NCBI GenBank assembly: GCA_008632985.1 | Contig: QPGO01000064.1 | Location: forward strand, 124,001 to 188,000 | Direction: 5' to 3' | From: Psammoneis japonica | Taxonomy: Eukaryota | DNA length: 64,000 nucleotides | Shown: positions 1,812-51,726 of the stretch, piece after piece | How the letters are laid out: each line of letters opens with the position of its first letter | Numbering within the stretch: the stretch's first letter is position 1 | Notes under the pieces: generated by a model | Seen by the model: only the letters and a program-made list of their open reading frames with translations | The model's database searches: none | What the model was told of the DNA's origin: nothing | Position numbers and translations under genes: made by a program

Positions 1812-2247
1812 TGCAGTATGCCTCGCTACTGGACAACACGGCGAGACCGTGCATAAGCCTCTTGTACGTGGCAACGTAGTATTGTTAACACGTACCTGGG
1901 AAGCACGACCACAGGAGGGCGTGGCTCTAGGTCTTAGGCAATTCCAGAAGGATGCTAAGAGAGCATCCGGCCGTGTGAAGCACACTAGCCCGTCGTCTGG
2001 CCCACGATGGTAGCGTGATTCCACACGATGACATCACTCGTGCATGGCGCGTGATGGCTTGATTCGCACGATCCATAATGCGAACGCACGATCGATTTAA
2101 TACGATCCAAATGCGAACGAATAGGGATTTGGCAAGATTCCCTATTCGCACGATCCCATTTTCTCTACTCTAAACTAGCTCATAATTTTCACAACGACAA
2201 AGTCGTAACACATCTTCTTTTTCAGCGCCTGGCACACACATGGGGCA
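1812..2247 (+). repeat. 5' LTR (436 bp)
   Basis: Aligns end to end with 6605-7036 with one 4-bp indel. Retains about 23 TpA. Confidence 0.95.
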
Positions 2248-2308
2248 CAGTAATGTTGCTCCCGCATATTGTGCGAGGTAACGAAATCTACAGAAACGAA
2301 ACTACGAA

Positions 2309-5300
2309 ATGTTGGCAGGACCGACAAATCTTAAAACGACCATGAAGAAGCGGGTTGAGCCGCCGATTCCGTTCGCACGGCCGGAGAAGAAAGAGCTGCA
2401 GCAGGGCGAGCACCAGACGTTCAAGCTGCGTAACAACCCTGCTGATCCGGATGGTCCAACGCACGAGATGGGCATTCCGCACCTTTCTGCGGCTACATGC
2501 GAGACACTCCCAATCTTTCTGCGCAACGTGGATCGCGTGCACGAAGGACAAAACATCACGACCGGGCCAGCGAAATTTGCCCTCATGCGTGACCCACTGC
2601 AGGGCGATGCTCTGATGTCATTTGACAACGCCGCTGACAAGCAGGCATCCCAAACCAACGCTGCGTGCGCAGCATGCGTCGCGAAGCTAAAGGAGAGCAT
2701 CTTCCCACACAGGGCGGTGCCATTGCAGAAGCGCCATCTGAGGCACTTCATGCGCAAGCCCGCAGAGGTTTCTGTTCATGACTGCATCATGAGGGCTGTT
2801 GAAATTAACGGCTGCATCTCTCAGTTTCCACCCGTGATGGAGGATGGAGAAACACCGGCACCATTGCTTGATGACGAACTGTGCGACATGTTCGAGTGCG
2901 GTGTGCCGAGCGCATGGCAGAAGTTCATGACGCTACAGAATTTTGACCCGTTGGCGCATGCTGTCGCCAAATTTGCACAGTTCTGCGAGCGCACCGAGCA
3001 GGTTGAGCTTTCCGAAGGCAACCGCGACCATCATGCCAGGGTCCCACGCAAGCGGGGACGTAGAACGGACAATTCTGAGTCGTTGATCACGACCCAACCG
3101 AACACCCACATGAAGCGTGTCAAGACTGGACATTCCAGCAACGAAGGCAGCAAGCCCAACACAAAACCTCGGAATGAGGAAGATGTCAATGCTCTCATTG
3201 GATCGAAGGTCGAGGAGTTCTTTGCCAACGCTCAGAAAAAGCGCAAGGCACGCGAGGAGGAGCTCAGTCACTTCCGCGACCTCAACCCAAGTGACTCCGA
3301 AGACTCGGACACTTGCCGACACGACACAGGCAGTTTCAATGCATTGGACGAATGCACAAACAAACAACTGAATTGCCATCGTACACGTGTTGTGGGCCAA
3401 TCCCGCAAACGAGTTAAAAAGACTCATCTCACTCCAATCTTGTTTGCAGCTGTGAATGCCAAACATGGCAAGGGCAAGACTCAAACTGTCAAGGCACTGC
3501 TGGACAGTGGTGCCAGCAGTGCTCTGCTCGACAGTCGACACTGCAAACGTCTGCGAAGCCATTCAACGGCTGAAACAAACTGGGCTGCGGTGGCAGGCTC
3601 GTTTGGTGCGTCCAACGACTGTGCCGTTAAATTCCGGTTGCCAGAATTGTCCGAAACTGCAGAACTTGAGCATGTCGTCCATGCACACAACGGAAAGTTG
3701 GGCAAGTGCGATGTGATCATTGGACGCGACATTCTGGAGACACAAGGCATTGATGTTGTCTTCTCCAAACAGATGACAGAGTGGCCATCAGTCAATGGAG
3801 AAGCGCCAATGAGGCACGCAGATGCTGCGGTGGAAACCTCCTTCTATCTTCAAGATCCAGAAGCCTCATCTTTGGAAACCGACCGGATTTCGCGCATTTT
3901 GGACGCTGGGTGCACGCCGGCCTGCCTCGAGGACATGACGCGAGGGGCAATGGGACTTTCTGCAGTTCAACAAAACGACCTTTTGGCACTGTTGAAACGC
4001 CATGAGTCCTTGTTTGATGGGACATTGGGAGAATGGAAGGGAGAACCCTGCCATGTCCAACTCAAGGAGGGTGCAGAACCACACCACGCTTGTCCGCACA
4101 AAGCACCTCGTGTGTGCGAAGCTGCGCTGCGCAAAGAAGTAGAACGCCTGGTGCGTGTCGGTGTTCTCAAACGTGTCAACCAATCCCAATGGGCAGCTCC
4201 ATCATTTGTCATGCCGAAGAAAGATTTGACGGTGCGCTTCATCAATGACTTCAGAGAGCTGAACAAACGGATCAAGCGATTGCCTCATCCGATTCCTCAC
4301 ATCCAAGACATGCCACTCAAGCTCGAAGGCTTTATGTGGGCTGCATCGCTGGATTTAAACATGGGCTGTTGTCACATCCGATTGGACACTGATTGCAAGA
4401 AGCTCTGCACGCTCATCTTCCCGTGGGGCAAGCATGAGATGCAGGTGTTGCCCATGGGATTGTGCAATTCGCCAGACATTTTCCAAGAACGCATGTCAGG
4501 CTTGTTTGAAGATCTGTCGTTCGTTCAAACGCATTTAGATGACCTTCTCGTCGTGACGAAAGGCACCCACGAAGATCACCTCAACAAACTTGAAGAAGTT
4601 TTGTTGAGGGTCCAGAAAGCAGGACTAAAAGTTAACGCAACTAAGTCTCACTTCTGTCAAACCCAATTGGAATGCTTGGGTCATCTGGTCAACAGAGACG
4701 GAATGCGACCAACACCCAATAAAGTCGACGCCATTGAGCGAATCGCGACCCCAACCAACAAACGCGACCTGCGTTCATTTGTTGGCATGGTGAACTGCTG
4801 CCGCGACATGTGGATTGGACGTTCTGAAGTCTTGGCTCCGCTGACACGACTCGCAAGCGAGACTGTTAAGTGGGAGTGGACGTCCGTTGAAGACGAGGCG
4901 TTCGAAACCGTCAAACGGGCAATGTCGGATGATGTTTTGTTGTCACATCCTGATTTTAATGAACCCTTTGAGACACATGCCGATGCCTCTAAATGTCAAT
5001 TGGGAGCAGTTACATCCCAAGACAACAAACCCATCGCCTTTTACAGCAGAAAGCTCAACAGTGCGCAATTAAATTGTGCAACAACGGAGAGAGAATTGCT
5101 CGCCATTGTGGAGACGTTGAAAGAATTTCGAACGATTCTCCTTGGTCATCGCACAATCACATGTGCTGATCATAAAAATCTCACGTACAAAGCATTCAAT
5201 GCCGAGCGCGTTGTGCACTGGCGGTTGACATGTGAAGAATGCGGTCCCGAATTATGCCATGTTAAGGGCACCCATGACCCAGTCGCTGACGCTCTTAGTC

Positions 5301-6565
5301 GCCTTCGACTGGCACCCAGTTTGCCTTCCGAGGCTAATCCGGATGTAAAAGACACTCCATCGAGTCGTCCTTTGCATGAAGCTTTTAATGCAGACGCGCA
5401 AGATGAGCCATCTCTGCCTGTTGGCTTCAAGCGCATTCAAAAAGCACAACAAAAGGACAAGCGCCTGCTCTCAAGAGCTGAGGACTCGTCCGACTGCTCC
5501 ATTCGCGCGTGTCGTGGGGGAGGGTCATCACGACAGTCAATCTGTCATGAGGACAAAATCGCAGCACCACAGTCATTGCAGGTTCCGCTAACTGAATGGC
5601 ACCACTAGACACTGTGTCATCCAGGTGAGACACGTGCGGAAATGTCTGTTGCCCAGCACTTCTGTTGGCCCAGTGTGAGGTCTACGGTGCATTCTACGTG
5701 CGTTAAGTGCGATCGATGCCAGAAGACAAAACGCCGAACGCAGCGTCATGGGAAGCCACCAGAAAAGGTCGCAGAGATAATTCCATGGGAGACTCCATGC
5801 ATGGATGTGACAGGGCCACACAAAATTCAAAGACGCGGAAAGGACACTTTGCAATTGTGGGCAGTCACAATGATTGACCCAGCAACCGGGTGGTTCGAGA
5901 TTAAAGAAGTGTCTGCGAAACGCGCAGACGTCGCAGCAAACGTCGTAGAACAAACTTGGCTGTGCAGACATCCGTGGCCAACCCAGGTGGTTTGTGACCG
6001 TGGGACAGAATTTATGGCAGAATTCAGCCAAATGATTAAAAATGACTGTGGGATTTTGAAGAAACCCACAAGCAAACGGAATCCACAGGCAAATGCCATG
6101 GTGGAACATGCACACCAGACACTTGGCAACATGGTGCGCTCCTTTTCAGCACAGGATGTGGAACTGGACGAAGATGACCCATGGAGTGGCATCCTCTCCG
6201 CAACAGCCTTCGCTGTTGGAGCTGCGGAACACACGACCACGCGTGCAAGTCCCATGCAATTGGTCTTCGGACGCGATGCGGTTTTGTCCATTGCCCATCG
6301 TGCCAAGTGGAAGTGCGTGGAAACCAGAAAGCAGAAGCTTGTCCACTTAAACAACAAGCGTGAAAATCAGAAACGCAAGGAGTGTCAATGCACCGCAGGG
6401 CAATTGGAACTTGTCAAACAGGAACAATCCTCTAAATGCGGTTCTGACAGCTGTGCAGGACCCACCAGAGTTGTCCATGTGCATGACAACGGCACGTTGC
6501 GCATCCAGAACGGAGCGCTGACAGATGCGCACAATCTGCGGCAGATTGCACCCTGTCACCAGCAA
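2309..6565 (+). pseudogene. gag-pol polyprotein (protease, RT, RNase H, integrase), degenerate
   Basis: Protease LLDSGA; RT LPMGLCNSP and HLDD (from YLDD); RNase H ADAS, ERELLA, DHKNL; integrase HH..LCHPG/CxxC and D..D(RGTEF)..E. One in-frame TAG at 5606-5608 splits two same-frame ORFs. The probable original stop now reads CAA (6563-6565). Confidence 0.93.
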
Positions 6566-6604
6566 GACATCCTGTCACTTGACGGCCCTGATCATGGGGG
6601 AGTG

Positions 6605-7036
6605 TGCAGCATGCCTCGCTGCTGGACAACACGGCGAGACCGTGCACAAGCCTCTTGTGCGCGGCAACGTGGTGTTGTTAACACGCACCTGGGAAGCACG
6701 ACCACAGGAGGGCGTGGCTCCAGGTCTCAGGCAATTCCAGAAGGATGCCAAGAGAGCATCCGTGTGAAGCACACCAGCCCGTCGTCTGGCCCACGATGGC
6801 AGCGTGATTCCACACGATGACATCACTCGTGCATGGCGCGTGATGGCTTGATTCGCATGATCCACAATGCGAACGCACGATCGACCCAATGCAATCCAAA
6901 TGCGAACGAATGGGGATTTGGCAAGATTCCCCATTCGCACGATCCCATTTTCTCTGCTCTAAACTGGCTCACAATTTTCACAACGACAAAGTCGCAACAC
7001 ATCTTCTTTTTCAGCGCCTGGTGCATGCACAGGGCA
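6605..7036 (+). repeat. 3' LTR (432 bp)
   Basis: Copy of 1812-2247 with only 2 TpA left (GTTAAC, CTAAAC). Confidence 0.95.
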
Positions 7037-7040
7037 CATC

Positions 7041-8640
7041 CGATCATCACGTCGCGAGTGAGAATTCGAGACGCGACGACACCATTTTTTGAGACTGGAT
7101 GTTTGCTGCTCGAGACAATGCCGTTTGCAACTTCAGACAACACAGTGCCGCTCGAGATGACATTTGCTCTGGGGCCCTGCTCAAGATGACACCAATCAAG
7201 ACTCACGACCAGACGGTGCCACTCGGCATGTGCATGATGCATCACCACTTGAGACTGGACACTGCTGAGAGCACGATGCAGGACAGCGAGAACGACGTCC
7301 CAGTGACAAATGGGAACTGCCAGCTTTCACTCAGAATGGCTTGGCAATTGCCGCTAAAATTTTTGGCAATGAACTGGCATCACTTTGCATGGCTCAAATT
7401 GTTGACGCCAGAGAATGAAGTTCAGCCCTCCTTCGGTCGGATGTGTTGTTGCCCATTGTCAACTGAGTCAAGATGAAGAAAAAAAAATCCAATTTTTAAG
7501 TGCTGTCACTCCTTTGCCAGCTGGGGCAGCACCAGCCAACCTGCACTTCCAGTGCACCATTGAGTGTGGCAGAAGTGGATGCTCCTCATGTGGACAAACC
7601 GGGATGGGCGCTGCTGGAAGGTGACGTGCCACCTCAGCAGCCTTTTCTTTCCTTCAAATGTGGTTTGACCACAGCCACCCAGCTCAGAATCCCAGTGGTG
7701 GAATGGGTTGTGTGATCTTCAAGGGAACCCAAAAGAACCTCCCTGTGGTCCTTTGCCATGCATTCTTGGTGCTTGTCACAGATGACAGTGGCAAGCTCTG
7801 GCTGGGAAAAGATTTCCGCACATTGCCTTGTCATGCTGTTCCTGCAATTTCCACCATGAGGTCCAAACATGTGACCCAATCTGCGCTGCCCTGAGTCAAG
7901 ATGAGCCAGTTTGTTCACACGTGCAACCTGGAAATGTCAAACAGGGTTGGAGCTGAGCCCAGCTTTCTTCTGTCGTGCATTGTTTTTTTTGTGGCACAGT
8001 GAAGTGGGGCCAATGCAAACATGTGCCATGTGCTGCACAGCACATGCTCCTGTGGTGTGCTTTGATGAGCTGTAAAAAGGTTTGTGGCAGAGGCTCCAAA
8101 CAAGAAATGTTGTGCATGATTTTTGGTGCTGCACCCAGCACTTGGTTGAAAAGACAGCACAGCTCCAAAGTGCCAGCGAGTGGAGCACCAAAGTGAGAGG
8201 AGCTCCTTTGCCACTCTCACTTGCTCGCAGGCCTGTGCAAACAGCCTCCCACCCATCTCAAGCAACACCCTCAACTCTGTGACTGCAAGAATCATGTGTG
8301 AGTTCCAGCTGACAACTCTGTCCAGCAACAAGAGGTTGATGAGGCTCACAAAGGCATCCTCCGGGTTCAAATTGTCTTCCAACTCGCAGGTGCCACTTGC
8401 GGTGTCACTTGCGGAATGATTCAGCATCTTTTGCTTTCACTGAAGTGTGGACGTCCCACGATGTTCACACTGTGCGAGACAAGGCAAAGGAGATGTGTGC
8501 GTGCAAGTGCGAGACTCTAGCCAGCTGCTGGCAGGGTGTTCTGTCTTTTTTCGAGAATGGCTATTACTAGCCCACTCCCATAGCCTTTGTGGGGCGATGG
8601 ACGAGTGCGATGCCCACGCAGCGAGCATGTTGATCCATCA
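7041..8640. other. TpA-depleted relic block (core also CpG-depleted), origin unrecognised
   Basis: Only a few TpA between 7041 and about 8500. CA/TG-rich, with many overlapping Cys/His-rich ORFs. Confidence 0.8.
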
Positions 8641-8698
8641 AACGGCAAAAGCCTCCACGCCTTCATGCAATACTGTGCTTTTTAGTTATGCTTTTTAG

Positions 8699-10657
8699 CT
8701 AATCAGAATTTTTGTCTCGAAAGGCCGTGCTGTCCCACTCCATACCTGAGGTTAGATACTGAACGGCCAAATCCAATTTCTTGGAAGGCAGCTTTGTAAT
8801 AGACAATGGATCACCATATCGTTTACCACCACGAAACATGACAAAAGTAGGAACCGCCTTTACATCAAGAACTCGACCAAGTTCTTTTCCAGACTTTCCT
8901 GCCGTATTCGCCTTCGCAAAAAACACATTATCTTTTTCTTCCGTTGTCATTCTGGCCATGCGGGTGAAGGCTGGAGTCATGTATCTACAAGTGGTACAAT
9001 ATGATGCACTCATAAACATGACACAGTCTCTATGCGATGACAGAACCTCATGCTGCAAACCAGTAACATCTGTAATATCCATGACGAAGGGATTCTTCTG
9101 CGCGTTGCTGGGCAACGCCTCTTCTTCAATTTCATCGTATGCTTGCGTTTGTCGGTTGCGGTCAATGTTAGTCAAAGGCGGAGCTGAAACCATTCCATCT
9201 GCTTCTATATCATCCAAAACTGGCAGCCCATACCTCACGTTAGATCCGGACGAATCCCTTGGCCAAGATGCCAACTCCCAGAACTCTTGCAGAGACCAAG
9301 AACGAACGTTCTTGTTGTTTGAGAAAAGAATCTTTTTATCCAACAGGGTTTGTACCATGTCTGCCAAGTCCGAAGGAGGGATAATTTGTGTAGTGAACTT
9401 GGATGAAATGGAATTTTGTGTCGTTGAGATGTGTTTGTCGGCTTTTCCAGGGCCAAACAATACTCCGCTATCGCGAACAATTCTTTGAGATTCCGTCATT
9501 GTGCTAACATACCTGCGGTTTCAGAGGGTTAACAATTTTTGCTGAGCTGCTTCCAAGGATGAATAATATCCACTGTTTCTTGCTCATAAGACTGCTTGTT
9601 GGGGCACTCACCGATGACAATTGTGTTGGCTCTTTAGCAACGATACGACACCGCCACCTGATAATGTCATCATGTCATCCTCATCTTCATCGTCCGAAAG
9701 AAAGCCGTCGCCCCTTCGTTCATCCGACATGGTATCTACCAAGGCATCAAAGTCACCCAACGCGGCTGCAAATCCAATGTCTAACTCGCCCACAGCTGGC
9801 TTCATTACGTCAATATCACTATTCCGAAACCGAAGCTTGTCGTTTGTCGTCACGACTGCCACATTTGCCCCCAAGGCTGCCAAGGCCCTATGGCAAAATT
9901 GAGAAAATTTTCAAGCCCATGGCGTCAGCTTATTTTCAGAACAAAAATTACATGATTTGCTCAGCAAATACTGAAACTTACTCTGCAACAAAACGAGCGT
10001 AGTCGCTGCCACCCATTACAACAACCTGCGATGTAAGTAATTGGGAGAACAGAGTGTAAGATAAGATATCTAGCACTTCATGCGCCTTATGCCTGGAGGA
10101 TTCCCCGAGTTTACTATCAACGGCCTAAACAAACTCACTTTTCCCGATACAAAAGATTCTCCACCGCCACCGACTCCTTCCAAACGAGGCAATCCACAGT
10201 ACACACCAGAAAGTGATGCCATCATTGTGGATATCGCATCCTGATCAGTCACATCAGATGGAACAGATACCATTGAGTCCTTGTAAATGTGCACATCTTG
10301 ATCTAGTGACACAGTACTTTCAGAGTCTTTTGAGCCATTTGATAAGACTTGAATGCCCATGACGCGCTTCTGGGGTGCATCCTCAGTCGTCCCGGTTACC
10401 ACCGTCATGTATCCTGCGTTACTCGATAGACCGCCGCTCAACGAAGGTGCAGCCGGCAGGAATTTTTGTATCGACGTCCATTCTGCTCCATCGTAGATTG
10501 CAACTCGACTTGTCGATACTGCTTTCAACACTAAACTATTCTCCCGGATGCCTTGGAATAGTCTTCCAGAAGAACGGCTGGATTTGGTGGCTACGTATGC
10601 AAAGGCGAAGTATCGGTAAGAAAATATCCACCAAAACAAAATCCACTTCTCCAACAT
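8699..10657 (-). CDS. Probable plastid-targeted protein with a Rossmann/MDR-like middle region and C-terminal thioredoxin domain (4 exons)
   Basis: Signal peptide ending FAF-AY. GT-AG introns join approximately 10657-10139, 10026-9982, 9889-9612 and 9513-8699 (VVVMGGSDYARFVAE-GLAALGANV). Thioredoxin motifs ASYCTTC and AVPTF. Confidence 0.75.
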
Positions 10658-10891
10658 GGTCTATTGCGAGATTTCTTGATACCGTTACAAAATATGCCTT
10701 GTCGGACCCAAAGAACGATCCGCGAAACTAGTTGGTTTGTTGCAGTTGTTTCAATGGATTCCGTCGCGCCGCAAAAAGATTGGGCGGGAAAAACACCGTT
10801 GGTCGTGTGCGCCACCTTCTGTTGTCGTGGTAGACGGAACACGTAGGTTTCTACGTTACCAGCTGCTGGCGTCAGTCGTTACTTCAATTAG

Positions 10892-10898
10892 NNNNNNN
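10892..10898. other. Assembly gap
   Basis: Run of N. Confidence 1.
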
Positions 10899-11214
10899 GG
10901 GGGGGTACCGACGGAAGAAGAGGGGGGGAGAGGGGGAGCGAAGCGACCCCGTTGCTGCTGTAACAACAAGAGAGAAGGAAGGAAGAGAGGAGAAGAACGC
11001 AGCAATGGCGGAAGTGAGTGCAAGGTGCGTTGTGTTGTCGCATTTTCGTGGCGTTGAAGATGCAGATCATAAGCCTATCGCGCATAAAAAATTTCCACGG
11101 TTGATTTTATTTAGGCGCCACCGCCCCCCATTTCCCATCTTCCGTCTCGGCGCCAATTCGAGATGCAACCATGGGCTAGAATCAAAAGGCAAGTAATGAA
11201 TCTACATTTAGAGA

Positions 11215-14200
11215 CTACTTTGATGAACACTGTTCATCGTGTGGTACTCTTCCTCGAGCAGCCACCCCCAACAAGTTTGTTTTTGAAAGATGGAATTCCC
11301 TCGCTCGGCAACAGCAGTGTTTTTGGTTCAGATCCGACTGCAGATTCGGCGGCATCTGCAACAGCGGCAAAACTGTTGGCACACTATTCCAAAAGGGATT
11401 AACTTGAATCGGAGTACAATGTGGAACAGAATGTGGAACGGGGTGTGGTGCAATCGGCACTGGTGGCAGCTGTCTTGGTGGAACGACCTCTTGCAAATTC
11501 GAAGGTTTCACTTTTTTCGCGCGCGGCTCCTCAGACGGCGGCAGTTGTTGAGACTTGGATTTTCTTTTGCATGGATTCTCCACACTTGCCATTGGGTTAG
11601 AACGGGTTGAACATGGGTTTCTTGTGCCACACTTGTTGCACATGCATCTGTCAGATTTTTTTCCGGATGCTGCTGCTGCTGCGCCGGTTGCAGCACTTCT
11701 CGTTTCGAGCTGCTCTCTCACGCGTTCCAATTGCTCCGGGTGAGCTGAAAAATGCCGCTCACCATTGTCTTCTTTTAGTTCTTCGACATTCCCATGCACA
11801 GGATGGGGTGCTCCTGCTTTCTCTGCCAGCTTGTTGATGCAGTCGAGCTTGCTGTGGTTGAGAAAAGTAGGAACGCCTCGAAAGGCGTGCGGAATCTTGG
11901 CGCGCTCGTCAGCCGTCAGTTCGTCTGTTCGGACACGCTCTTGCATTGACATGTTGCATTCACACGTTCCTGCAAGGCACAGTGCATCTATCAGAGAGGA
12001 TCTTGAACCAGTGTTTCCAAAATGCTTGACGACATGGTGATGCTTTTCAAGCTTTGATTCCGTGCCAGTGGTTGTTACAAACGTGTCGAGCTTACACTTG
12101 GACCATTTTGAAGGCTTGACAACTCTGTACAAGTCTTCATGTGGCAGCGGCTCATTGAGTCCACGAGCCGACAATTTTGCGTTTTCAACCGCTGGCTTTG
12201 TATCTTCCGTAAAAAGCGGCTTCCCAGAGTCTGGGTCATGCCGTCCGCCAGCTTCTGCCGCGCCGGGAGACGCAGAGCACTTGTGCCGATCGAACCAAGA
12301 TTCCAGATGCTTGTTCCGTGTTTCGAGTGGGTAAGTCCACCTTCGAATGTGCTTCTTGTAGTTGTTCCACTTCTTGCTGTTCTTGATTTCCTCAATTTCT
12401 TCCGTCGTGTTCTTCTTCCCGCCAAGTTTCCCAAAGATGAGAGCATCAACTACCTTCGCCTCGTCGGATTCATCGTTGCACCGGACGCAATCCTTTAAAT
12501 CACGAACCGCACGACAGCAATCAATGTGAGTGCCTCGTAAAGTCCGAATGATGCGGTTTGTCCAGTGCCAAAGACCAAGCCTGCATGCAATGTCCTGACC
12601 AAAAATTTGCTTCCAAAACTCTTCCTTGTCAGGCCAAGTGTCAGAGCAATGCACTTGAGGTTTGACATTTGGACGCCTCGCAAACTGTTCAGCTGCATGC
12701 GCACAGTCTTTTGTTTCCAATGTTGGCACTGCTGCAGCTGTGCCAATCTCTCCAGTCTCTGTGGCCATGGTGAAGAGTCCCTTGCCGTTGTTGTCTTTGT
12801 AATTCTTTAACTGGTCAAAAGTGTGGTCGGACGCAACACTGATGCGACAACCAATGGATTGCATTTCCCTCGTGTGCCGAATGTTGTCGCTCACTCCGGT
12901 CTCGGTAAGGTTTGATTGCCGGACAAAATCACACACATCTCTCATATTTTGTCCAGTGGGTCCATGGCGACCGACCCAATCCTCGAACACCGACAAACCC
13001 GTCGCATTCCCTCCGCCAGCATCTTTCAACAAAGAACAGTAATTTTCCTCTTTGTCAACAAAAGTCTCGCCTCTTTGTTGATGAAGAAAAGCAGACATGT
13101 CATCACCATTGCCACACTTCTTCACAGCATGGTCCACATGTCGTGACGTTTCGAGCGACAGGTGAAAAGACGGATTCGCGGCTGCGCATCGTAGATCCAC
13201 GGGACAGCTTGTTTGCAGAGGCCTCGGCAGCTTCTTAATTAGCTTGGGATTGTTCGCCTTGCATTTACAGCCACATTTGTTGCACTTATAGAGCATTGAG
13301 CTTGTCCAATCAGCAGTGCCACTGACTTTCAACACTGGAGTCGGTGAACACTCCTTCTTGATGTCAAACTGCTGATGCATCATCTCGCCGTCATCACATC
13401 CATCGACACATGGCAATGATGTGCCAATGAAGTTCAATTCCCAGCAGAGCAAATGGATTGTAACGCCTTCAATCTCACTGTAGAGGTTGTCGGGAGTTTT
13501 GGTTGTGTCATCACGTGGCACTGCAAATGACATGGCACCGGAAGGAAAATTCTTCTGATGCCATTTAAGTTTCTTGGCATTCACCTCTCCGCCCATGATC
13601 TCATTCGAGTCCGCATGAAACCGAGATGGACACAAGTCCAGAAGGTACAAAATCAAAGCCTGAATGGGTGCAGGACAAGGAATCTTCTTTTTTTTACATG
13701 TTTCAATTCGTTTCCGAATCTCTCTCTTGAGCACCTCTCTAGAGAGAGGATCTTCTTCAACAACATTGCCAGAATGCTCCATGCTATTCGACGTGACGGT
13801 GCTGATGGTAGCAGCAGTAGCGTTGGCAGCAGCGTTGGCAGTAGCGTTGGCAGTGGCAGTCGGCGACGAGACGGTCGTTGCAGATGGCTTGTTGTTTTTT
13901 GAAGCCCTGGTGCCATTGTGGAACAGTGCCTCCACACCTTCCTTAGTTGGGGCCTGATAACCCGGTAGCTTTTTTGCGTTCTTTCTTGCGTTACTAGCAA
14001 TGAAGCGATGGACAGCCGCGTTTCGCTCGGCACTCATGTTCTTTCCACAGCAGATGGATTTTGGGCAGCTCGTGTCATGACCCTTTTTGTAGGAGGGCCC
14101 TTGTTTGCACCTTTTGCACTCAACAACCTTTTCTTGAGTAGTATGACTGTTTGGTAGAGTCAGAATTTGCGATTCTGCCTCCGCCGCCGGTGATGTTGTA

Positions 14201-14337
14201 AACCGAGGCGCATTTTTCCCCGACAACTTAGCGATTCCAGAAAAAGCTCGCTCCTTTGCTTTTTTCGTGGCTGCCTTTCGAGTCTGAGACTGAATGCCCA
14301 TGGTGCTGGGAAGCTTATGGGAGAAATACTTCTCCAT
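11215..14337 (-). mobile_element. Putative DNA transposase, DUF6729-associated/RNase H-like type, partially hypermutated
   Basis: Intronless 1040-aa ORF with CxxC clusters and the motif series SDHTF, TETGEI, (YY>HC)SDTWP, RLGLWHWTNR, GTESKLEKHH. From memory this resembles DUF6729-containing transposase-like proteins. TpA-poor. No TIRs found. Confidence 0.6.
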
Positions 14338-21200: not shown

Positions 21201-21245
21201 ACATCACACGCCAATCTTGTTGTTGTGTGACGATAATACGAGACA

Positions 21246-42288: not shown

Positions 42289-43046
42289 CCATTGTGTCGT
42301 GCTTCGAAGTGAGAAGTGGCTTGCATGTCTATCAATTAGTTATTCGAATATGATGTTCAGCCGTTCTGTAATCGATCCCATTTTGTAGTATGTGTGTGAC
42401 GCCGCAAGAAGAACCTTTTGAGCTTTGATGACATGCGACCGCGTCACAGGTTCCCGAGAGCCTTTACGGCATGCCTCTCGTACGCACCGTGCCACATCCA
42501 CATTTCTAAAGCAAAAGAGAGTAGATTTCGATCATGAGGTGACAAACAGAATTCTTAATTTTTTGCAGTACAATAAAAGAAGAAACCTGTTGTTGCTAAT
42601 TGTCGGCATCAGCATTTATCTCTTGTCCTTTACCCAGTCCAGAGTCAAGCAATCCAGGGCCTGACGCTCCAGCGTGTTGGAAAATATCGACTCCGGGTGC
42701 GAACGAACGAACAAACTAACTCGACAATAGGTCGAATCCAAGTGTTGAACTGTTTCCCAAGATTACTCCTAAAATTAAACTCGCTCAAACTGATCGATTA
42801 ATCGCTCAACTGGTCCCACACAGCAAAGACAAGAAATCCTCTTATGTGGGCTTTGCCGTCTCAATCGCCACTTAGACTCTAGTAGGTCCTCTTGACCCTC
42901 TCGACTTCGCTCTCGCCTTTGCTATGCAGTCACACCATATATGCCAGAGCCGCGTCACGCTCGAAATTTTTCTGGGGCATCCACGACTAATCTCGCTTCA
43001 CCTCCACCACAACAAACCAAAACACACCTGTCTGACCCTTGCGACG

Positions 43047-44900
43047 ATGGGAATCAAACACCTTTGGAAGGCGGCGCTTGGAGCAATTAACACTGCACCA
43101 TCCGGACCCTTTGGTGTTGCCAAGGACACCATTGTTGGTGTTGATTTGTCCGTGTGTGGCTTCACAAAAGCTGTCACAGCAAGCGCAGCCAATGAAGGCG
43201 CCGCACAAAGTTTGATGTCACAGCTGCATCCACTGACTGGGTCACTGTGTCTCTTCAGTGTGTGCATCACAAGCTTGTTTCTGATGGATTGTGCTGCATC
43301 ATTCATTTGATGGATGCTGCCATCCCATGAAGAGTGTTGCTGAGCTGTGCATGACAAAAAAAGTCAAACCTCAAGGACAGATGCAGAACTTTGTCAGCCG
43401 GGCCAAGGCCAATGAGCCAGTGATGGAACAAGATCATTTGATGGCTTCATCCAAGATTCATGATCTGTGTGACCCTGATGCCAGTGCAGTGTCACACTTG
43501 ACAAAGGAGTGGTGGATGGAGCCAGAAGGTGTCAAATGCGAGTGCGCGCCTTTTGAAGCTGAGCATCAACTTGTGACGAAAATGGACGCAGAAGGTTGGA
43601 TCAACAGCATTGTGACTGAAGATGGAGATGCAACAAATTTGGGTGCAAAGTTGTTTTCTTTAAGGTTGACCTGCAAAATGGAAAGTGGAAAGTGCGCAAA
43701 AGGGATGTGTTGCCAGATGAATGTTCAGTGTCAAAATGCAAACTTGAAGACTGGCCGGCTGCAGCAGCTAATTTGCTTGGATCTGATTGCAACAAAAGAG
43801 TTGACAACATTAGATTCTCATGTGTCTTCACCAAGATTCTTCCCGGGCAAACAGATTTCCCAGGCAAAGCTTTGGAGAAAGCTGTCAGAGAAGGCGCCAT
43901 TGTCCTGCACTTGATGCTGATGGAAGCCTGGTGCCACAGAGGGCACTCCTGCAATCAATGGAACATGGGTTTGGGGGTCTGTGGTTGGTTTTGGGAAACC
44001 AGATCTGGCAGATCTGCCACCAGCTGCAGCGGCAGACTGTGGAAGGGCTCAGTGATTTGATGGGGCAGTCTTTGCAAGAGTTTCCAACTCCTGAGTGTGG
44101 AGCAGCAGAGAATGATGAGGCAGCAGGACAAGTGCTTCCATGGCTTGCATGTTTGAACTTCAATTTGGTTTTTGCCAAGTGCCTTGCAATGGATGTCCTT
44201 CAGCCAATGTTGGATTGCCGTGTTGTGCAGATGCCCAGAGACTGGTGGCCATGACACAGTCAAGGCCATGGCATCTGATCTTAGACTTCACCACATGTGA
44301 GTGTTGGAGCCTGAAAATTTTCCCACTCAGATCAGGCAATGGCCAGTTCACAAGGTGCTTGAGCTGGCGGACGCATCTGAGGGTTGTTGGGATCATGCAT
44401 GTCATTTTGAAAAAGCAAGTGAGCTGGAATCCTGCGATGGCTCAGTGCCAGAAAGCTTCTCCATCCAAATGATGGTGATGAGCACAATCTTCAATGCAGG
44501 CTTCTGTTGCTTGACAGTGGAAGTTTGCTTGCACAGGTGCCACTCAATTTGAGCAGTTTTGGGTTCTTGTGGATGGCACACTCATTTGGCCTTTCAAGTT
44601 GCGCTGCATTCTTTCTTGAAAACTGACGCTGTGTCATCCAGTCTGGAGTCCTTGTAAAGAAGAAGATGCAAAAGGGACACATGCCACCACATGTGGGCTT
44701 TGATGAAGAAACAAAGAAATTTCTTCAGCACCTGTTTTCATGCTGTGTGGCTGCTGTGATGAAAGAGAGATGTGCTTGCACACAATTGCAACACTGTCAA
44801 TGTCCGACAAATTCAAAGGTGTTGCAGTGGAAACATTTTTGAAGTGTCAATGCCTGGGTTTCCACTTGACCAATCCCCAATGCCGGTTGAACAACTCACA
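43047..44900 (+). pseudogene. XPG/Exo1-like nuclease relic with possible downstream SWIM finger
   Basis: MGIKHLW, VGVDLS, FDG..HPMK, APFEAEHQL and TEDGD across frameshifts. CGCCDEREMCLH (CxC-x5/6-CxH) near 44745. Confidence 0.72.
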
Positions 44901-45012
44901 TTTCAAGAGAAAAAAAAGATCTGCGCACATGGCGGCCCAAGCAGCTTTCTCTCAGATGGAAAGAAGAGACAGCAGCAGCAACTGCAATGATGACAATGAC
45001 GTCAAAACAAAT

Positions 45013-45739
45013 NNNNNNNNNNNNNNNNNNNNNNNNNNNNNNNNNNNNNNNNNNNNNNNNNNNNNNNNNNNNNNNNNNNNNNNNNNNNNNNNNNNNNNNN
45101 NNNNNNNNNNNNNNNNNNNNNNNNNNNNNNNNNNNNNNNNNNNNNNNNNNNNNNNNNNNNNNNNNNNNNNNNNNNNNNNNNNNNNNNNNNNNNNNNNNNN
45201 NNNNNNNNNNNNNNNNNNNNNNNNNNNNNNNNNNNNNNNNNNNNNNNNNNNNNNNNNNNNNNNNNNNNNNNNNNNNNNNNNNNNNNNNNNNNNNNNNNNN
45301 NNNNNNNNNNNNNNNNNNNNNNNNNNNNNNNNNNNNNNNNNNNNNNNNNNNNNNNNNNNNNNNNNNNNNNNNNNNNNNNNNNNNNNNNNNNNNNNNNNNN
45401 NNNNNNNNNNNNNNNNNNNNNNNNNNNNNNNNNNNNNNNNNNNNNNNNNNNNNNNNNNNNNNNNNNNNNNNNNNNNNNNNNNNNNNNNNNNNNNNNNNNN
45501 NNNNNNNNNNNNNNNNNNNNNNNNNNNNNNNNNNNNNNNNNNNNNNNNNNNNNNNNNNNNNNNNNNNNNNNNNNNNNNNNNNNNNNNNNNNNNNNNNNNN
45601 NNNNNNNNNNNNNNNNNNNNNNNNNNNNNNNNNNNNNNNNNNNNNNNNNNNNNNNNNNNNNNNNNNNNNNNNNNNNNNNNNNNNNNNNNNNNNNNNNNNN
45701 NNNNNNNNNNNNNNNNNNNNNNNNNNNNNNNNNNNNNNN
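45013..45739. other. Assembly gap
   Basis: 727 N. Confidence 1.
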
Positions 45740-48700
45740 CTTTTTTCAAATCTGCAAAAAAATGTGCTGCTTGTCAAATGTCAGACACTCCAGCAGTTGC
45801 CTGGAAGACCACTGTTCCCACCTGGCTTGTGGAGCAGCAACCCAAGGTTCATTTCTGCATGGGCCAGTTCCAGCCCGCAGAGCAGAAGGCAGAGATTCTC
45901 CATCAGAACATTGTCTCAGAGCCCTGAAACTGACACCAGCCAAGTGAAGGGGCAACTTCTGCAGGATGTCTCACCAACACAGATCATGGCTGTTGTCAGG
46001 CAGCTCCAAAACATCACATGCTGCTTTGCTTCTTGAGTCCATGAAACACAAGGCATGCATGTTCTGTGTTCTGTTTGTGTGGCGTGCAGAAACAAGCATT
46101 TGTTTTTTTTTTTGAAACTTTGTTGCCAAGTCCTTCTGTGTCATGTGGCAGTTTGTAGAGATGCAAGAAAACATCCAGCGGTGACTCATTCTCTGGTGTG
46201 TGATCCACAGGAGCAAATTTGCTGCCCATCCAATGAAGCAGAGGATCCCATCAAAGCCCGCTGGTGATTTCAAGATGTGATGTGCCAAACATGCATTGCC
46301 ACAGCATCTTGCAATCACGGAGTTGATGCAAACATTCAAACAACTCAAGTTGTTGCAGAAATGACTCTGGCACATTTTGTGGAGACAAGAAAGAGCTTTC
46401 TGGCTGACATCTTGCATGTGTTGCTTGTCTTCTTGAAGCAGAAAGTTGCTTTGTTGCTCCCGGCTTCTCACGGCTTGCTGCATGCTTTGTCAATCATGCA
46501 GCTTGTTTGAAGAACCATGCATCATCAGCCTTTTCAATTGTCAAGTTGCATGTTGAGGTTGCTGTGGGAGCAGAGTTTGACTCTGAACAAAAGTCAAATT
46601 CTGTGCCACATGTGTCATTGCCTTCATTGTCAGAGCAGCTCATTGTGTCACTCCAGCTGCCATCAGAGCTGTCAGAGGCAAATTCTGATCCTGTGCATGC
46701 ACCCAACAAATGTCAATCATTTTGGTCCCACCAACGTGCTTGTGTCTGGTTGGCTTGTCATCAACCAACATCTGCCAAAAGGTTGTCAAGTTTGTCCCTG
46801 TCTCACCAAATCCAGCTGCAAAGCCCAACACATCAAGGTCTTGCATTGCACGTGCATTTTGCATGATCTTTCCAGTCTGCTGTCAGAGCTTTTCCTGGGG
46901 GCATGTCCAATGATTTCACAATCTTGCTCTCTTCGGCATGTGGCTCCACAGGCTCAAGTGTGCTCAAATGACAAAGTGCAACCACCACAATGTTGACCCG
47001 CCTGCTGATGTTCCAAGCAGCCCATCTCATTGCTTTGCTTGTTTTGGTGTGCAACATGGTCCTTGCACTTTGGAGCTTGTTTTGCAAGGTGTGCCCTTGC
47101 CATCAAGATGAATGAATTCCTGGCAAGATTCATTCTTTCAAACTCATCAGGCATCTCCTCAGAAAAGCAGTCACAAGGCATTGGAAGGATTGACAGAAAT
47201 TCTCTGCAAGTGCCCCATCTTGGCTGGTGCCCACCAGCTCAAGTGTTTCAGAGTGCACACTTGTGATGCACCAAACTCTTGGCCAGTGATTTTCTGCACT
47301 GGGCAGCAATGAATGAAACATTCAACAATCAATGCCTGCTCAAACCAACTTGGGTGTTCTGGCTTGTTGCACTGGAGTTTTCCAGTGCTCTCATCCAAGG
47401 TGGATTTCTGGATGCTCCAAAGGAACATCAAGAAAAAATGTTTGAACATGGAGCCTCAGCTCTTGACATGCAGCAAGCCCAAACATGTCTTTGGCACCTG
47501 CGGGTTGTTCTTGTGCCATGACAATGATGTCAGCTGGTGCTGTTTGGCAGCATCACTGTCCAGAAAATCTGCAGCAAGCTGCTCTGTGTCTGTTGATGAA
47601 TGAGAGGAATTCATTGATTGATGAGGTGTTGGCAACAAAGAAGATTTCTGGCATTTGCAACACTCTGCCAACTGCTTGCTTGTTTTCAGACTTTGCGCTG
47701 TTTCCCGTGCAGTGGAAAGCAACTCTCTTCCACATGGTGGCTGCCAGTGATTTGTTGCCAGTTGCCCTTAAACTCCCCATCAGTGGCAACACATTTTCTT
47801 TGTTGGTGCTCTTTCATTCTTGTTTTTCATTGACACAATCACCGCCAAACAAGCGTCTCTCAAATGATTCATTGCAATCATTGAGCTTTGCAAAGGTGGC
47901 TTGTTGTTGCCTTGTAACAGCCCACTGCTTCTGCTGGATTGCTCCATTTTTCTTGAGCTGATTTTTCTTGGCACATTTGAGAACAGAGAAAGAATCATGG
48001 TGCTTCATTTCAAACAGAAGCACTTGCCAGGGTTGTGTGGCAAAGCTTGGCAAGCTCCACTGATCTCAATGGAGCAGATGGCTTCTTGCCCTTGTCACAA
48101 GTGCACCATTTGTGTGATGCCATGCAGACAATCAGCAGAGATCACACAGCTGGGCAAGCCAAGGCAAAGGGGCTCACCACTCAGCAACCCCATCACTGGG
48201 ATCTGCCCTTGTTGCACCAAAGAAGGCTCCTTGTGTCAGCAGAAATCCCTGCAGCTCAGGGTGGCAGTTGAGAGGGGGAGCAGGAAGTTCCTCCAGACAA
48301 AGCCATCATTTGCCTCCTTGCACCATTGCTTGAATGTGTCCTCCAACACAACAGCTTGTTGGCATGCTTCCAAAACCAAACAAACAAAAGGGCGGTGCAT
48401 TGGATCCTCTTGCTTGCCACTTGAGTTGGCTCCTTTGAAATGTCCTCCAAAATCTTGGGGCAGAACAGAAGCACAGCAGCAGCAAGCAACATCAAGAGAT
48501 CAGTGCCAAATCCCTTTGCATTGATGAAGAAGAGAAGACAAAATGCTCAACCTTCTCTGACTCTGTCACAATGTTGCTCATCAAGGGAGAGCAGCCACCA
48601 CAAATGTTTTTCCATCATGTGGATGGCACCTTCCAGCCACCCAGTGCCTTGCCACACTCCTTGTCCATCCTCTCTGTTCCTTGCACACAGTCAAACAAAC

Positions 48701-50299
48701 TGTGCGCATTCTCAAATCCCAGTCTGATCAAAACATCTGTGGAACTCCAGCAGCAGAGGGTGAGTGAGCCATCTCCATCTCAGAGTCTTTCTTCCTTTGA
48801 CAAGATTTTGTCAGGGCATTCAGTGGCCCAAAGCACCATGAGTGTGTCAGATCGCCAGGTCCATGGGGCCCCTCCTGTGGCCACCATCTTCATCTTCCTC
48901 ATCATTGTCTTCGTTGCCATCATCAAGCATTGCAAGTTCAATGTGTGCCTCATGGAGCTGGGCCAACTTGGAGCAGGAGGCTGGCCACAGTTTTGACACA
49001 TTGCTGGACTCTTTCTCTGTGTCATTGTTGCAGGGAGTCATGGCCACCTTTCCAAACCTGGGAAACAACAAGTCAGAATTGCTGTGCTCAGCTGGCATCA
49101 TCACAAGAAGAAACATGGCAAAGGCAACCCAGCAGCCAAGCTTCCAACTGTCCTGGCAAGAGACAAGAGGAATGCAGAGGCCAAAAGTGGCGGCATTTGG
49201 GGTTGGTTCAGTCAATTCAGCTGAGAGAGCATGACGACTTCTTGTCTGGAGTGCTCACCTGATGAAATGGACATCATCCAAGCACATGACATTGACTTGT
49301 TTGCTCAAATTCAGCTGAGCACAAGTGTTGCTGACCCAACAAGGGTGCATTTTCAAATGCTGGTGCTTGTTTGTCTTGTGCCTCATGATGCTGTGAACAA
49401 CAACTGGGCAGTCCATGTTTCTTCATGCTGCATCACAACAAAATTTTTTTGCTTTCCTCCAATGGCTGCTTCAGCTCCTCTGCCAGAAGCCTGGAACAAG
49501 CAATCATCCAAGAAGCAAAATTCAAATGACTCTGAGTTGCCAACCCAAATGACAGCGAGTGCCACAGCCTCCCCATGTTGTTGTGTGGATGCCTTGCAAT
49601 GGTTCAATGGTGGTTGTCTTCATGTCTGACAGCAGCTTCTTGGACCACCTTTCAGCTGTGAGTGCTGTGGGGCTGTGATTGTCGGGGTGCCTCTGGATGA
49701 GGCACACCTTTGTTGCACTGGCAGATGGCAGACCAAGTTGCAGAGCCAAGCAAAAGGCTCTGTGCAGTTGGTGCCTTGCTGCAAAATGGCACTTTGCGCC
49801 GTTGGCCAGGCAGACCAGAAACCCCTCCATCAGGTTGGCACTCTGATGTCTTGGTGCCTAAAATCTTCAACATGATGTCTGAGTGCCTGCAGTGCTTCAG
49901 GTGGTGACAGACTTGTTTGAGAGCCTTCCTCTGCTTCTTCTTCTCTCTCTCTCTTTGCTTCTTCTGTTTTCACGGCAAGGAGCAAGGGCCAAAGCAGATG
50001 TGAAGAAGTTGGCAGGGACCAAAGATGCTCCATTTGGCGGGTCTGCTGCTGCTGTGCCCAGGGCTGGGCCAGCCCAAGTGGGGTGCACTGGTGTCTCATC
50101 TGCACAGAGAGCGCAACCCAGGTCATTCCATCTGGTGGCATCTTCCAAGCCTTCTCTTCCTCCACCTTGTCTTCAAGTCTTGCCAGACCATGCTGCATGC
50201 CACCCATCCTTCTTCACCCTGTGAAACATGAAAGATTGTGAACAAACAACAACATTTTCAGCTGAACTTGATGAAAATGGGTTGCACAGCACTTGATTC

Positions 50300-50750
50300 A
50301 ATGTGCCGTAACTTGAAACCAAGTTCATGGACTGTTTTCATCGACATGGGTGCTTGGCTGGATTTCCATCCCAGAGCTGCGAGTCCAGCCACCCATGTGT
50401 TGAAGACATGCCAGAAGTTTGGATTCCACTTTGATCACATTTGTGCCTTTGAGATCACCAAGAAGATGCCTGAAGAAGCATTCAGGCTTGTTCTGGACAG
50501 TTGTTTCATTCACATCATTGGATCAATGTTGGTGTGAGTGCGGAGAAGGGTCATCGTCTCAATCCATTGTCCACCAGCACATTGTCCAAGTTTCAACCAG
50601 ATGACTTTGTCAAGGTCAAGCTTGACACTGACATGCCTTCCATTGGGGTTCCGTTGGCGTGTCAGGTGTTGGAAGAGGAGAGACACCATGGTGAGATTGA
50701 CCAGTTAAATCAAGGATGGCACAAAGCTCTTTCACGAACTTCGTAAGAAG
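50300..50750 (+). pseudogene. Fragment of a FkbM/SAM-methyltransferase-like algal family gene
   Basis: VFIDMGA.LDFH, KFGFHFDHI(Y>C)AFE, HWINVGVS..NPL, DDFVKVKLD.D, with a frameshift. Confidence 0.55.
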
Positions 50751-51239
50751 GGCGTCACTGATCATTCTGACTGTGACAAACAACAAGAACAACAAGGTCG
50801 TGAGCTGCCATTTCCATGATTTCCAGTGGTGCAGCCTGTTTGCTGGATGGGAAGAAGGCAGCAACTCCAGGCACACCTCCCAGTGGCAGCCTTAAAGAAC
50901 CCATGATCTTCGCAGCAGTCTGCTGGCACCTGGCAGGAACGACTGTCAGCTGGCATGTGCTCTAGATGGCTCAGCCGCTCCTTGCTGCTGCCAGTGGTGG
51001 CGATTGTTCTTCTCCCCACAGTGCCATCCAAATTGTCATTGCAATGACGCAAAAAGCCTTCCAGGGGGCCCTCAGAGAGCACGAGACATTTCGTTTTGAC
51101 AAACTGGGCTGCTTCGGAGAAGCAAAACCCAGTGGAAGCAAAGATTGCTGGCTCAAACAATGAGAGAGATCCATTGTCCCTCTTTGATGTGCACTCCAGC
51201 ATGCTGCTGTTGTGCACAGCAGCAGCCACGTGGACCAAC

Positions 51240-51295
51240 AGCAGCAGCAGCAGCAGCAGCAGCCAGCAACAACACAACAACAACAACAACAACAA
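51240..51295 (+). repeat. (CAG)n/(CAA)n compound microsatellite
   Basis: cagcagcag...caacaacaa runs. Confidence 0.9.
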
Positions 51296-51726
51296 TCCAG
51301 ATGAAGTGTTTGGTTGCTTTCCACCAGAACTGCTAGCTGGCAGCAACAGAGTTGTAGTTCTTGCTGCATCACATCTTGGGGTTCGGCCTTTCGTTTTGGT
51401 GTTTGTTTTTTAGCCCAATGGTTTCGTTGTTCTTTCTCTTGTAATTCAGATGAAACAGAGTGTGAATCAGCAGTCTACAAGGTAGTAGCTCTACTGTGTG
51501 CTGGAATCCCCAACTACCCTAGCTCTTGGCGTCCTCGTTGGCGCAGTCGGGTTCGATGCGTACAAGTCTCAGCGCTACTGCCGCACAGGTGGATGCATGA
51601 TCGGATCGCTTTCTCAACCTCCTGTCTCCTCCTCCTCCTCCTCCTCCTCGACTGATGGTTGCACACCCAGGAGATTCTAGTTCTTCTTCTTTGTGCGGGG
51701 GTTTGCATCCTTTCTCCTTGCTGACG

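Follow-up and report, generated by a model that had tools for sequence, protein, structure and literature searches.

What removes nearly every TpA dinucleotide from sharply bordered parts of a diatom contig and leaves the host genes between them at ordinary TpA density? The question is raised by a 64,000-base stretch of Psammoneis japonica DNA (assembly GCA_008632985.1, contig QPGO01000064.1, positions 124,001 to 188,000; hereafter the window), in which a reading of the letters alone, here called the original prediction, had described five strongly TpA-depleted blocks among genes with normal TpA. We computed observed/expected (o/e) ratios of TpA, CpG, CpA and TpG in 500-bp sliding windows and tabulated them per block, and block borders were refined from lists of TpA positions. 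The five blocks were borne out, as was the accompanying gain of CpA and TpG, and the same profiles newly disclosed CpG depletion in three stretches. The affected DNA comprises a many-copy Ty3/gypsy retrotransposon (apart from its 5′ long terminal repeat, LTR), a polymorphic 3.75-kb insertion (B2) and gene-free or decayed stretches, lying between expressed host genes. We conclude that these domains have very probably undergone TpA→TpG/CpA mutation at the DNA level, on both strands and after integration, and we propose an adenine-deaminating process of silenced chromatin as the agent. The depleted domains, divided by their CpG content into a CpG-poor class A and a CpG-retaining class B, are as follows.

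2340–8520, no strand: depleted domain 1, consisting of the gypsy body, the 3′ LTR and about 1.5 kb of flank; TpA o/e 0.16 (2450–7500) and 0.03 (7500–8550).
11250–14520, no strand: depleted domain 2, the interior of B2; TpA o/e 0.28 (11200–14500), a partial depletion.
16430–20950, no strand: depleted domain 3, class A, without recognisable gene; TpA o/e 0.03 (16400–21050), CpG 0.22.
22770–25430, no strand: depleted domain 4 (B4), class B; TpA o/e 0.06 (23000–25450), CpG 0.70.
43000–51340, no strand: depleted domain 5, class A, interrupted by a gap of N at 45013–45739; TpA o/e 0.04 (43000–45000) and 0.02 (45740–51300), CpG 0.15–0.26.

The five blocks total 24,975 of the 64,000 bases (39.0%) and hold 133 TpA (5.5 per kb), against 1683 (43.1 per kb) outside them. 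TpA o/e was 0.02–0.28 in the blocks and 0.60–0.71 in four background stretches, and the o/e of CpA and of TpG rose to 1.30–1.87 from a background of 1.11–1.25. The longest TpA-free run in background DNA was 226 bp, whereas block runs reached 1357, 1613, 1944 and 1962 bp; given 0.0434 TpA per position in background, the last of these would arise with a probability of about 1e-38. ApA was depleted in no block (o/e 1.13–1.31; background 0.94–1.18). Block borders were sharp, being resolved to roughly 50–150 bp, and every block ended within a few hundred bp of host open reading frames (ORFs). Tyr accounted for 0–0.3% of residues in the gypsy, M64-like and XPG-like ORFs of the blocks and for 1.1% in the B2 ORF, while host ORFs mostly had 2.3–6.6%.

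Because the stop codons TAA and TAG need TpA, the blocks also fill with long false ORFs: 89 frames of at least 90 aa, long, overlapping and on both strands, lie in about 25 kb, and gene callers would report them as genes. A host ORF with a ubiquitin domain (41046–42143) has 0.5% Tyr and a TpA o/e of 0.33–0.43, with no excess of CpA or TpG (1.04–1.18). A shortage of TpA or of Tyr thus cannot serve as a diagnosis by itself and must be accompanied by a gain of CpA + TpG.

The timing and direction of the change can be read from the gypsy element of block 1, whose parts are listed here.

1810–2249, plus strand: 5′ LTR, Ty3/gypsy, spared, with 23 TpA (self-BLAST pair of 91.8% identity; LTR alignments).
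2309–5608, plus strand: gag-protease-reverse transcriptase (RT)-RNase H ORF, 1099 aa, hypermutated, Tyr 0.3% (Pfam RVT_1 1.3e-19, RT_RNaseH_2 2.2e-27).
5642–6820, plus strand: integrase ORF, 392 aa, without Tyr (Pfam rve 4e-06, Integrase_H2C2 4.8e-04).
6603–7038, plus strand: 3′ LTR, hypermutated, with 2 TpA left (alignment with the 5′ LTR).
7500–8520, no strand: flank beyond the element, class A, stripped of TpA and CpG (o/e TpA 0.03, CpG 0.25, CpA 1.79, TpG 1.82).

The Pfam matches RVT_1 and rve agree with the LTR retrotransposon that had been predicted here. The predicted start of the block at 1812 had to be moved to about 2340, since the 5′ LTR keeps normal TpA; normal density persists through it and for about 90 bp beyond, to 2332. 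The two LTRs were identical at integration and now differ at TpA, which indicates that the change came after integration. Among the 23 TpA sites of the 5′ LTR, 21 were changed in the 3′ LTR (13 to CpA and 8 to TpG) and 2 were kept, as expected from the original prediction of A→G at TpA on either strand. CpG sites differed between the LTRs at 3 of 33 positions, and other columns at 8 of 322; six of these eight make up three CA/TG swaps at the end of the LTR, compatible with each LTR having been hit separately at an ancestral TpA (or CpG). Non-TpA A/T positions were changed at 6 of 170, ApA underwent A→G at 0 of 24, and 27 of the 33 substitutions in the pair were T>C or A>G. TpA loss in the 3′ LTR thus reached 91%, compared with differences at 9% of CpG sites and 0.6–2.5% of other columns, and so exceeded background by about two orders of magnitude or more. 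The LTR flanks, TCCCA and TCCGA (4 of 5 letters alike; LTR starts 1810 and 6603), are consistent with a single insertion.

Direction was established from conserved protein columns. We aligned the gypsy polyprotein by MAFFT with the first 40 by rank of its 120 listed homologs. At the 22 columns with Tyr in at least 80% of the 40 homologs, the window has Cys 11 times, His 9 times and Tyr twice, so that the predicted Tyr→His/Cys polarity is seen at 20 of 22. Conservation was complete at the columns of His (10/10), Cys (5/5), Asp (23/23), Gly (30/30), Ala (25/25) and Gln (13/13). Ile was kept at 15 of 28 columns (replaced by Thr 5, Val 4, Met 2) and Thr at 11 of 24 (Ala 9), losses that fit TpA hits within or across codons. 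Altogether 76 of 449 conserved columns were changed, and reversion of CA/TG to TA undoes 48 of the 76. The outcome is gene destruction: Tyr codons became Cys or His, and the RT motif YxDD, whose Tyr is invariant in 15 homologs (consensus ...TYIDDLL), reads ...THLDDLL in the window (YIDD→HLDD). The polyprotein homologs, 60–65% identical, contain on average 3.81% Tyr (minimum 2.95%), against 0.3% in the window ORF. Similarly, metagenomic relatives of the element had TpA o/e of 0.52–1.18 in all 78 of the best-scoring stretches among 548 confirmed, a selection that favours intact elements. The depletion is therefore not an inherited composition.

Both strands were hit. Relative to GC-matched relatives (n = 35), the window element has 10.0 rather than 47.4 TpA per kb, and both CpA (99.1 vs 80.0) and TpG (85.5 vs 55.2) are raised, indicating hits on either strand with at most a mild sense-strand excess of A>G. 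Strand-coordinated runs were absent from the LTR outcomes (9 runs, 10.9 expected, P 0.26) and from the Cys/His sequence along the polyprotein (11 runs, 10.9 expected, P 0.61), a pattern that speaks either against processive editing of long single-strand tracts or for numerous separate rounds. The contexts of surviving TpA, expressed relative to their background share, were TTAA 4.41-fold, CTAA 1.92, GTAA 1.48, ATAT 0.09 and ATAC 0.18. Per strand, the LTR edits fell on 2 of 11 TAA, 8 of 12 TAC, 7 of 15 TAG and 4 of 8 TAT. Both data sets indicate that a 3′ A disfavours a hit and that TAA is the least-hit context. No clear rule linked hit direction to the flanking bases at Tyr codons.

The mixture of CpA and TpG within one LTR, the sparing of the other LTR, the 1.5 kb of flank that was hit and the involvement of non-retroelement blocks together place the process on the chromosome after integration. 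Repetition, named in the original prediction as a possible feature of the targeted chromatin, is not the trigger, because the 5′ LTR of a many-copy family was spared and DNA outside the element was hit. The spared LTR adjoins the upstream side of a P2X receptor gene (ORF 246–1568, minus strand), and we infer that it marks the limit of a chromatin domain.

We compared read contigs from two (X1 and X2) of three runs, all from one study and none listed as RNA, with 20 kb of the window. In total, 5,799 X1 contigs matched, 1,520 of them at ≥99%, 1,805 at 95–99% and 2,474 at 90–95% likeness. The gypsy family is one of many diverged copies: summed X1 depth was 10,115–28,656 over the element and about 60 over host genes, values that serve as a rough guide and are not copy numbers. 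The same contigs delimit a second target, B2.

10890–14642, no strand: B2 insertion, 3753 bp, with an empty-site allele (an X1 contig joins 10889 to 14643).
11215–14337, minus strand: B2 ORF, 1040 aa, member of a large unnamed family found by homolog search, Tyr 1.1%, without Pfam family.

The bridging contig (depth 60.1, shorter side 225 letters) indicates that one allele or copy lacks B2. Near both ends of the insertion there is a 13-nt inverted match, TACCGAYGGAAGA, and a 7-N assembly gap (10892–10898) sits exactly at its left edge. The ORF family has 897 representatives at E ≤ 0.001 and 217 at E ≤ 1e-30. Pfam assigned no family to the window ORF, and eight intact homologs gave a single weak match (DUF6729, E 1.1e-4), below the cut-off; the transposase of the original prediction is thus unconfirmed. 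In an alignment with 28 homologs of at least 850 aa, the 20 columns where Tyr occurs in 50% or more of the homologs read 6 Tyr, 7 Cys, 3 His, 2 Arg, 1 Phe and 1 Leu in the window, and conserved Cys (14/14) and His (10/12) were kept. X1 variant places comprised 231 transitions and 38 transversions. Among the 40 of 270 variant places listed, 11 of the 12 B2-family positions were TA/TG/CA changes, among them three adjacent TG/CA swaps, as expected when separate copies are hit independently.

The signature recurs in environmental relatives of B2. Among the best 150 of the family representatives, P0485 and P0512 keep 0 of 14–15 conserved Tyr (Cys 8–9, His 4), P0471 keeps 1 of 14, P0459 1 of 7 and P0382 7 of 19, whereas in intact homologs the median retained is 74% (minimum 41%). 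These Tyr-poor relatives are only 39–43% identical to the window ORF and come from JGI/IMG, ENA and Logan. The signature is therefore present in other element lineages and data sets, and Cys or His at conserved Tyr columns offers a cheap protein-database screen for the same hypermutation elsewhere.

A process with this specificity was described in 2026 in the rhizarian alga Bigelowiella natans (Mettrop et al., bioRxiv 10.64898/2026.01.13.699255, April 2026), so that the novelty claimed in the original prediction does not hold for the system as a whole. According to the main text of that preprint, 231 of 302 nuclear point mutations in mutation-accumulation lines fell in two hypermutable regions, one an integrated nucleocytoplasmic large DNA virus (NCLDV) and the other a virophage region. 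Of the 231, 230 were A>G/T>C, and every one of these lay at TpA; the rate was about 6e-7 per site and generation, roughly 1000 times baseline, and the effect was confined to some lines. The TpA loss in our LTR pair is of the same order as that 1000-fold elevation. The text further reports 124 TpA-poor, CpA + TpG-rich clusters genome-wide and an enrichment of TpA-poor coding sequences for RT and DDE domains, and its authors propose an ADAT2-like DNA adenine deaminase, for which the ADAT2 homologue Bn78255 is a candidate only. The B. natans cluster thresholds, which were set on that species and transfer approximately, are reached in the window at 17–21 and 46–51 kb, with 14 of 63 scorable 1-kb windows passing.

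Judged by the preprint's main text, the two cases agree in several respects. Mutation is A>G/T>C at TpA only, giving TpG and CpA, and is regional with normal neighbours. Foreign or mobile DNA is targeted, here the gypsy element and the polymorphic multi-copy insertion, with blocks 3 and 5 otherwise unidentifiable. Repetition is not needed, the NCLDV insert there being single-copy. As a lead only, one of our blocks also carries a giant-virus-like XPG remnant. The cases differ in host (a chlorarachniophyte of the Rhizaria there, a diatom of the Stramenopila here), in degree (Rho 0.45 for the NCLDV region there, near exhaustion with o/e 0.02–0.16 here) and in kind of evidence, which there consists of de novo mutations and here is historical (LTR pair, protein polarity). 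The main text of the preprint mentions neither CpG nor diatoms nor stramenopiles. The accessible text of a Phaeodactylum mutation-accumulation paper names CG, CC and TG as mutable contexts with a GC→AT bias and does not use the term TpA. A literature search, with most subscription journals outside its reach, yielded no report from diatoms or stramenopiles and no work following up the preprint, and the part of the original claim that concerns diatoms stands to that extent: the process appears unreported in this group.

CpG content separates the depleted DNA into the two classes. In class A (7.5–8.5, 16.4–21 and 43–51.3 kb), CpG is also depleted (o/e 0.15–0.26), and the joint deficit of TpA and CpG roughly equals the excess of CpA and TpG. 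In class B (gypsy body, B2 and B4), CpG o/e is kept at 0.70–0.89. We take class B to be young because it includes the many-copy gypsy element and the polymorphic B2. Since it has lost its TpA with little loss of CpG, CpG loss is read as ordinary, slower decay of 5-methylcytosine (5mC) in older silenced DNA; in class A it would be a separate and older process, with TpA lost first. In the diatom Phaeodactylum tricornutum, about 6% of the genome is given as methylated (PMC6604790).

Alternatively, a single enzyme might remove both dinucleotides. In heterochromatin, a TET/JBP-type dioxygenase could oxidise 5-methylpyrimidines that precede a purine (the T of TpA and the 5mC of CpG), and mispairing would give T→C and C→T. 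Oxidised thymine mispairs, and thymine modification in dinoflagellates prefers TpA. TpA is moreover self-complementary, so that T>C on one strand equals A>G on the other, and in class A both dinucleotides are lost and both end as CpA/TpG. The two losses are uncoupled, however, in the gypsy body, B2 and B4 (TpA 0.06–0.28, CpG 0.70–0.89) and again in the LTR pair (TpA 21/23, CpG 3/33), and we regard pyrimidine oxidation as unlikely.

It is very improbable that the element was edited before it integrated, either as RNA by an ADAR/ADAT-like enzyme or as single-stranded cDNA. The clearest target is indeed a retroelement, and a U before the edited A is typical of ADAR, as the Discussion of Mettrop et al. 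points out. Yet both directions occur in one element (13 CpA and 8 TpG; Cys 11 and His 9) without strand runs, and RNA editing predicts like LTRs, of which one was spared. The domain also reaches 1.5 kb outside the element, non-retroelement blocks were hit, and B2 copies carry independent TG/CA swaps.

We give equally little credence to an artefact of sequencing, base calling or assembly, such as a modified base misread in heterochromatin. The reads come from one study and possibly from the source sample, and X1 contigs differ by about 0.9% from the window in block 3, with small indels. By contrast, a 3,394-base piece of an X1 contig reproduces 7496–10889 with 0 differences, at a depth of about 60 and including about 1 kb of TpA-free DNA, and each site carries either CA or TG, without mixtures. 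Homologs lacking Tyr occur in other public collections (JGI/IMG, ENA, Logan), and in B. natans the mutations were identified with Illumina data from mutation-accumulation lines (Mettrop et al., main text).

The last two alternatives are barely credible. Reversed polarity, in which naturally TpA-poor elements acquired TpA in the 5′ LTR through C→T at CpA in the manner of fungal repeat-induced point mutation (RIP), exploits the fact that the LTR pair alone gives no direction, but conserved Tyr became Cys or His while conserved Cys and His were kept, 78 of 78 relatives (best of 548) have normal TpA, and block TpA o/e of 0.02–0.16 lies far under the host background of 0.6. DNA polymerase eta, which the original prediction had listed as a candidate, would through error-prone repair synthesis in silent chromatin produce A→G at its WA motif, which comprises ApA and TpA; the TpA changes belong to that motif, but A→G at ApA was seen at 0 of 24 LTR positions, and block ApA o/e was 1.13–1.31 against a background of 0.94–1.18.

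We therefore return to post-integration mutation of both strands in putatively silenced domains, against which several observations must be set. In the gypsy alignment, 28 of the 76 changed conserved columns are not of the TpA type and include CpG-type Arg→Gln/His changes. At about 2090–2100 the 5′ LTR reads TTTA where the 3′ LTR (about 6880–6890) reads CCCA, three consecutive T>C changes with one at TpA, which may represent local spill-over of the process to neighbouring T's. Polarity is not directly demonstrable in the class A blocks, which are without homologs, and that their CpG loss is separate is judged from the younger blocks, where it is not seen. TpA depletion occurs in none of the 78 environmental gypsy relatives, although the retained set favours intact elements and is not evidence that the process is absent elsewhere. 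The gypsy family is still many-copy, so any defence is incomplete. Read support is not independent, as the matching reads come from a single study and possibly from the assembly's own sample. Finally, deamination, silencing and defence are all steps that we infer.

Known systems resemble the process in part. Fungal RIP is likewise a dinucleotide-specific transition hypermutation of chromosomal mobile DNA that acts on both strands and destroys coding capacity. However, RIP makes TpA from CpA, whereas here a different base is altered, TpA is destroyed and CpA/TpG is gained; RIP also needs duplication, whereas here a repeated LTR was spared and 1.5 kb of non-element flank was hit. 5mC deamination at CpG accounts for the conversion of CpG to TpG/CpA in class A. 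It cannot remove TpA, and it was slower here (CpG 3/33, TpA 21/23 in the LTR pair). Neither process explains the TpA loss, as had been argued in the original prediction. APOBEC3 provides a precedent for a deaminase that inactivates retroelements through hypermutation and whose traces are preserved in genomes (PMC4866542). It converts C to U in minus-strand cDNA before integration and with strand bias, whereas the change seen here is A:T→G:C, affects both strands after integration and extends outside retroelements. The basis for the deaminase hypothesis is the likeness to ADAR and ADAT (TadA family), which convert A to inosine, read as G, and prefer U/T before the edited A (Mettrop et al., Discussion). 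Their known natural substrates are RNA, whereas here chromosomal DNA was altered on both strands after integration. Fixation of RNA A-to-I editing by retrotransposition differs further, in that neither sense-only A>G nor like LTRs are found here.

In the mechanism that we propose, an enzyme would act on nuclear DNA in a silenced chromatin state. It would most likely deaminate adenine preceded by T on either strand, a 3′ A being disfavoured, and the resulting inosine would be read as G. Targeting would follow a chromatin domain or foreignness rather than sequence repetition, and a slower, separate 5mC decay would then remove CpG from the older-looking blocks. A role in defence is plausible. ADAT2/3 edit A34 after the conserved U33; to our knowledge, ADAT2 is universal in eukaryotes, so its presence alone does not discriminate. 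Pfam scans of the window ORFs and of 89 stop-to-stop ORFs from the blocks contained no deaminase family. Stramenopile deaminases of unassigned role, one fused to SAM and Tudor and others Rossmann-fused, as catalogued in the relevant part of Iyer et al. 2011, are candidates only.

On a wider scale, we tentatively suggest, as a possibility short of our expectation, that diatoms and chlorarachniophytes may share a chromatin-guided editor of 5′-TA-3′ in nuclear double-stranded DNA (A:T→G:C or T-modifying) that serves as a fast, repeat-independent defence against transposons and integrated viruses. Such an editor would be old, at least as old as SAR (stramenopiles, alveolates and Rhizaria), and widespread in marine protists, would leave Tyr-free, Cys/His-rich ORFs in metagenomes, and would be identifiable by phylogenetic profiling. 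A chromatin-active DNA adenine deaminase, if real, would represent a naturally occurring equivalent of the adenine base editors that have been engineered.

Beyond the preprint's main text, the window adds a joint loss of CpG in the older blocks, a domain border that falls within a single element and a 3′-neighbour bias toward sparing TpA before A. Also new are the lineage, the near-saturation, the LTR-based proof of post-integration action on two strands, the independence from repeats, and the precedence of TpA loss over CpG decay. The diatom signature shows that the phenomenon is no peculiarity of a single strain or data set and extends it to an ecologically dominant group. The window supplies natural experiments, namely an LTR pair with a spared copy, a polymorphic insertion, and young and old blocks, from which timing, strand symmetry, context and repeat independence can be read. 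The enzyme question thereby becomes approachable by comparative genomics. Some diatom species are genetically tractable.

The remaining blocks yielded little protein homology. Within the 89 block ORFs, Pfam matched only M64 and XPG_I, and the rest of block 5 was without family.

23749–25383, plus strand: M64-peptidase-like frame in block 4, without Tyr (Pfam Peptidase_M64 3.6e-08).
43285–43911, plus strand: XPG/FEN-like nuclease remnant in block 5, without Tyr (Pfam XPG_I 8.7e-06; PDB Exonuclease 1, E 8e-04).

Neighbours of these frames in the Atlas, which are language-model feature scores and count as leads only, were bacterial and archaeal M64 clusters for the first (score 0.89). For the XPG remnant, the top five sets were 67–100% viral, most commonly short XPG proteins of Nucleocytoviricota (0.91–0.92). 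The remnant is possibly of giant-virus origin; a search of viral contigs with its ORF gave 10 pattern matches, none of them confirmed. If the affinity is true, block 5 would be a decayed viral insert as in B. natans. The 27 stop-to-stop ORFs of block 3 gave 0 Pfam matches. This block is covered by single X1 contigs at approximately host depth, a rough indicator. Over window positions 16069–21500, the X1 contigs differ at 26 letters in about 2,844 bases (0.9%) and by small indels. The spectrum is mixed (CpG-type, TpA-type and transversions), and the differences could reflect allelic divergence, a paralogue or a local assembly error.

Host genes between the blocks include the P2X receptor, a thioredoxin-like protein, a light-harvesting complex (LHC) protein, Rab and kinases. 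Every named organism among the best 120 homologs of the LHC gene (21237–21725) is a diatom, at 63–76% identity (including Psemu1, Ditylum brightwellii and names beginning Ste..., Rhizosol..., Leptoc... and Thalas...); prolyl aminopeptidase homology alone is ambiguous as to host group. By its LHC gene the window is thus of diatom and not of Bigelowiella origin. Contigs of X2, a run labelled 'DNA?', fell within the 20 kb on host genes only and none on the blocks, which is no evidence on expression. They skip GT..AG stretches of 94–113 nt on the minus strand (9511–9609, 9887–9980, 10024–10136 and 15559–15661), and thus look spliced, marking introns of the thioredoxin-like and hydrolase genes (8678–10755 and 14885–16103). 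In host sequence between an SDR-like (short-chain dehydrogenase/reductase) gene and the ORF at 55086–56285, a tandem direct repeat (54485–54802 and 54801–55148) is 73.5% identical over 355 columns.

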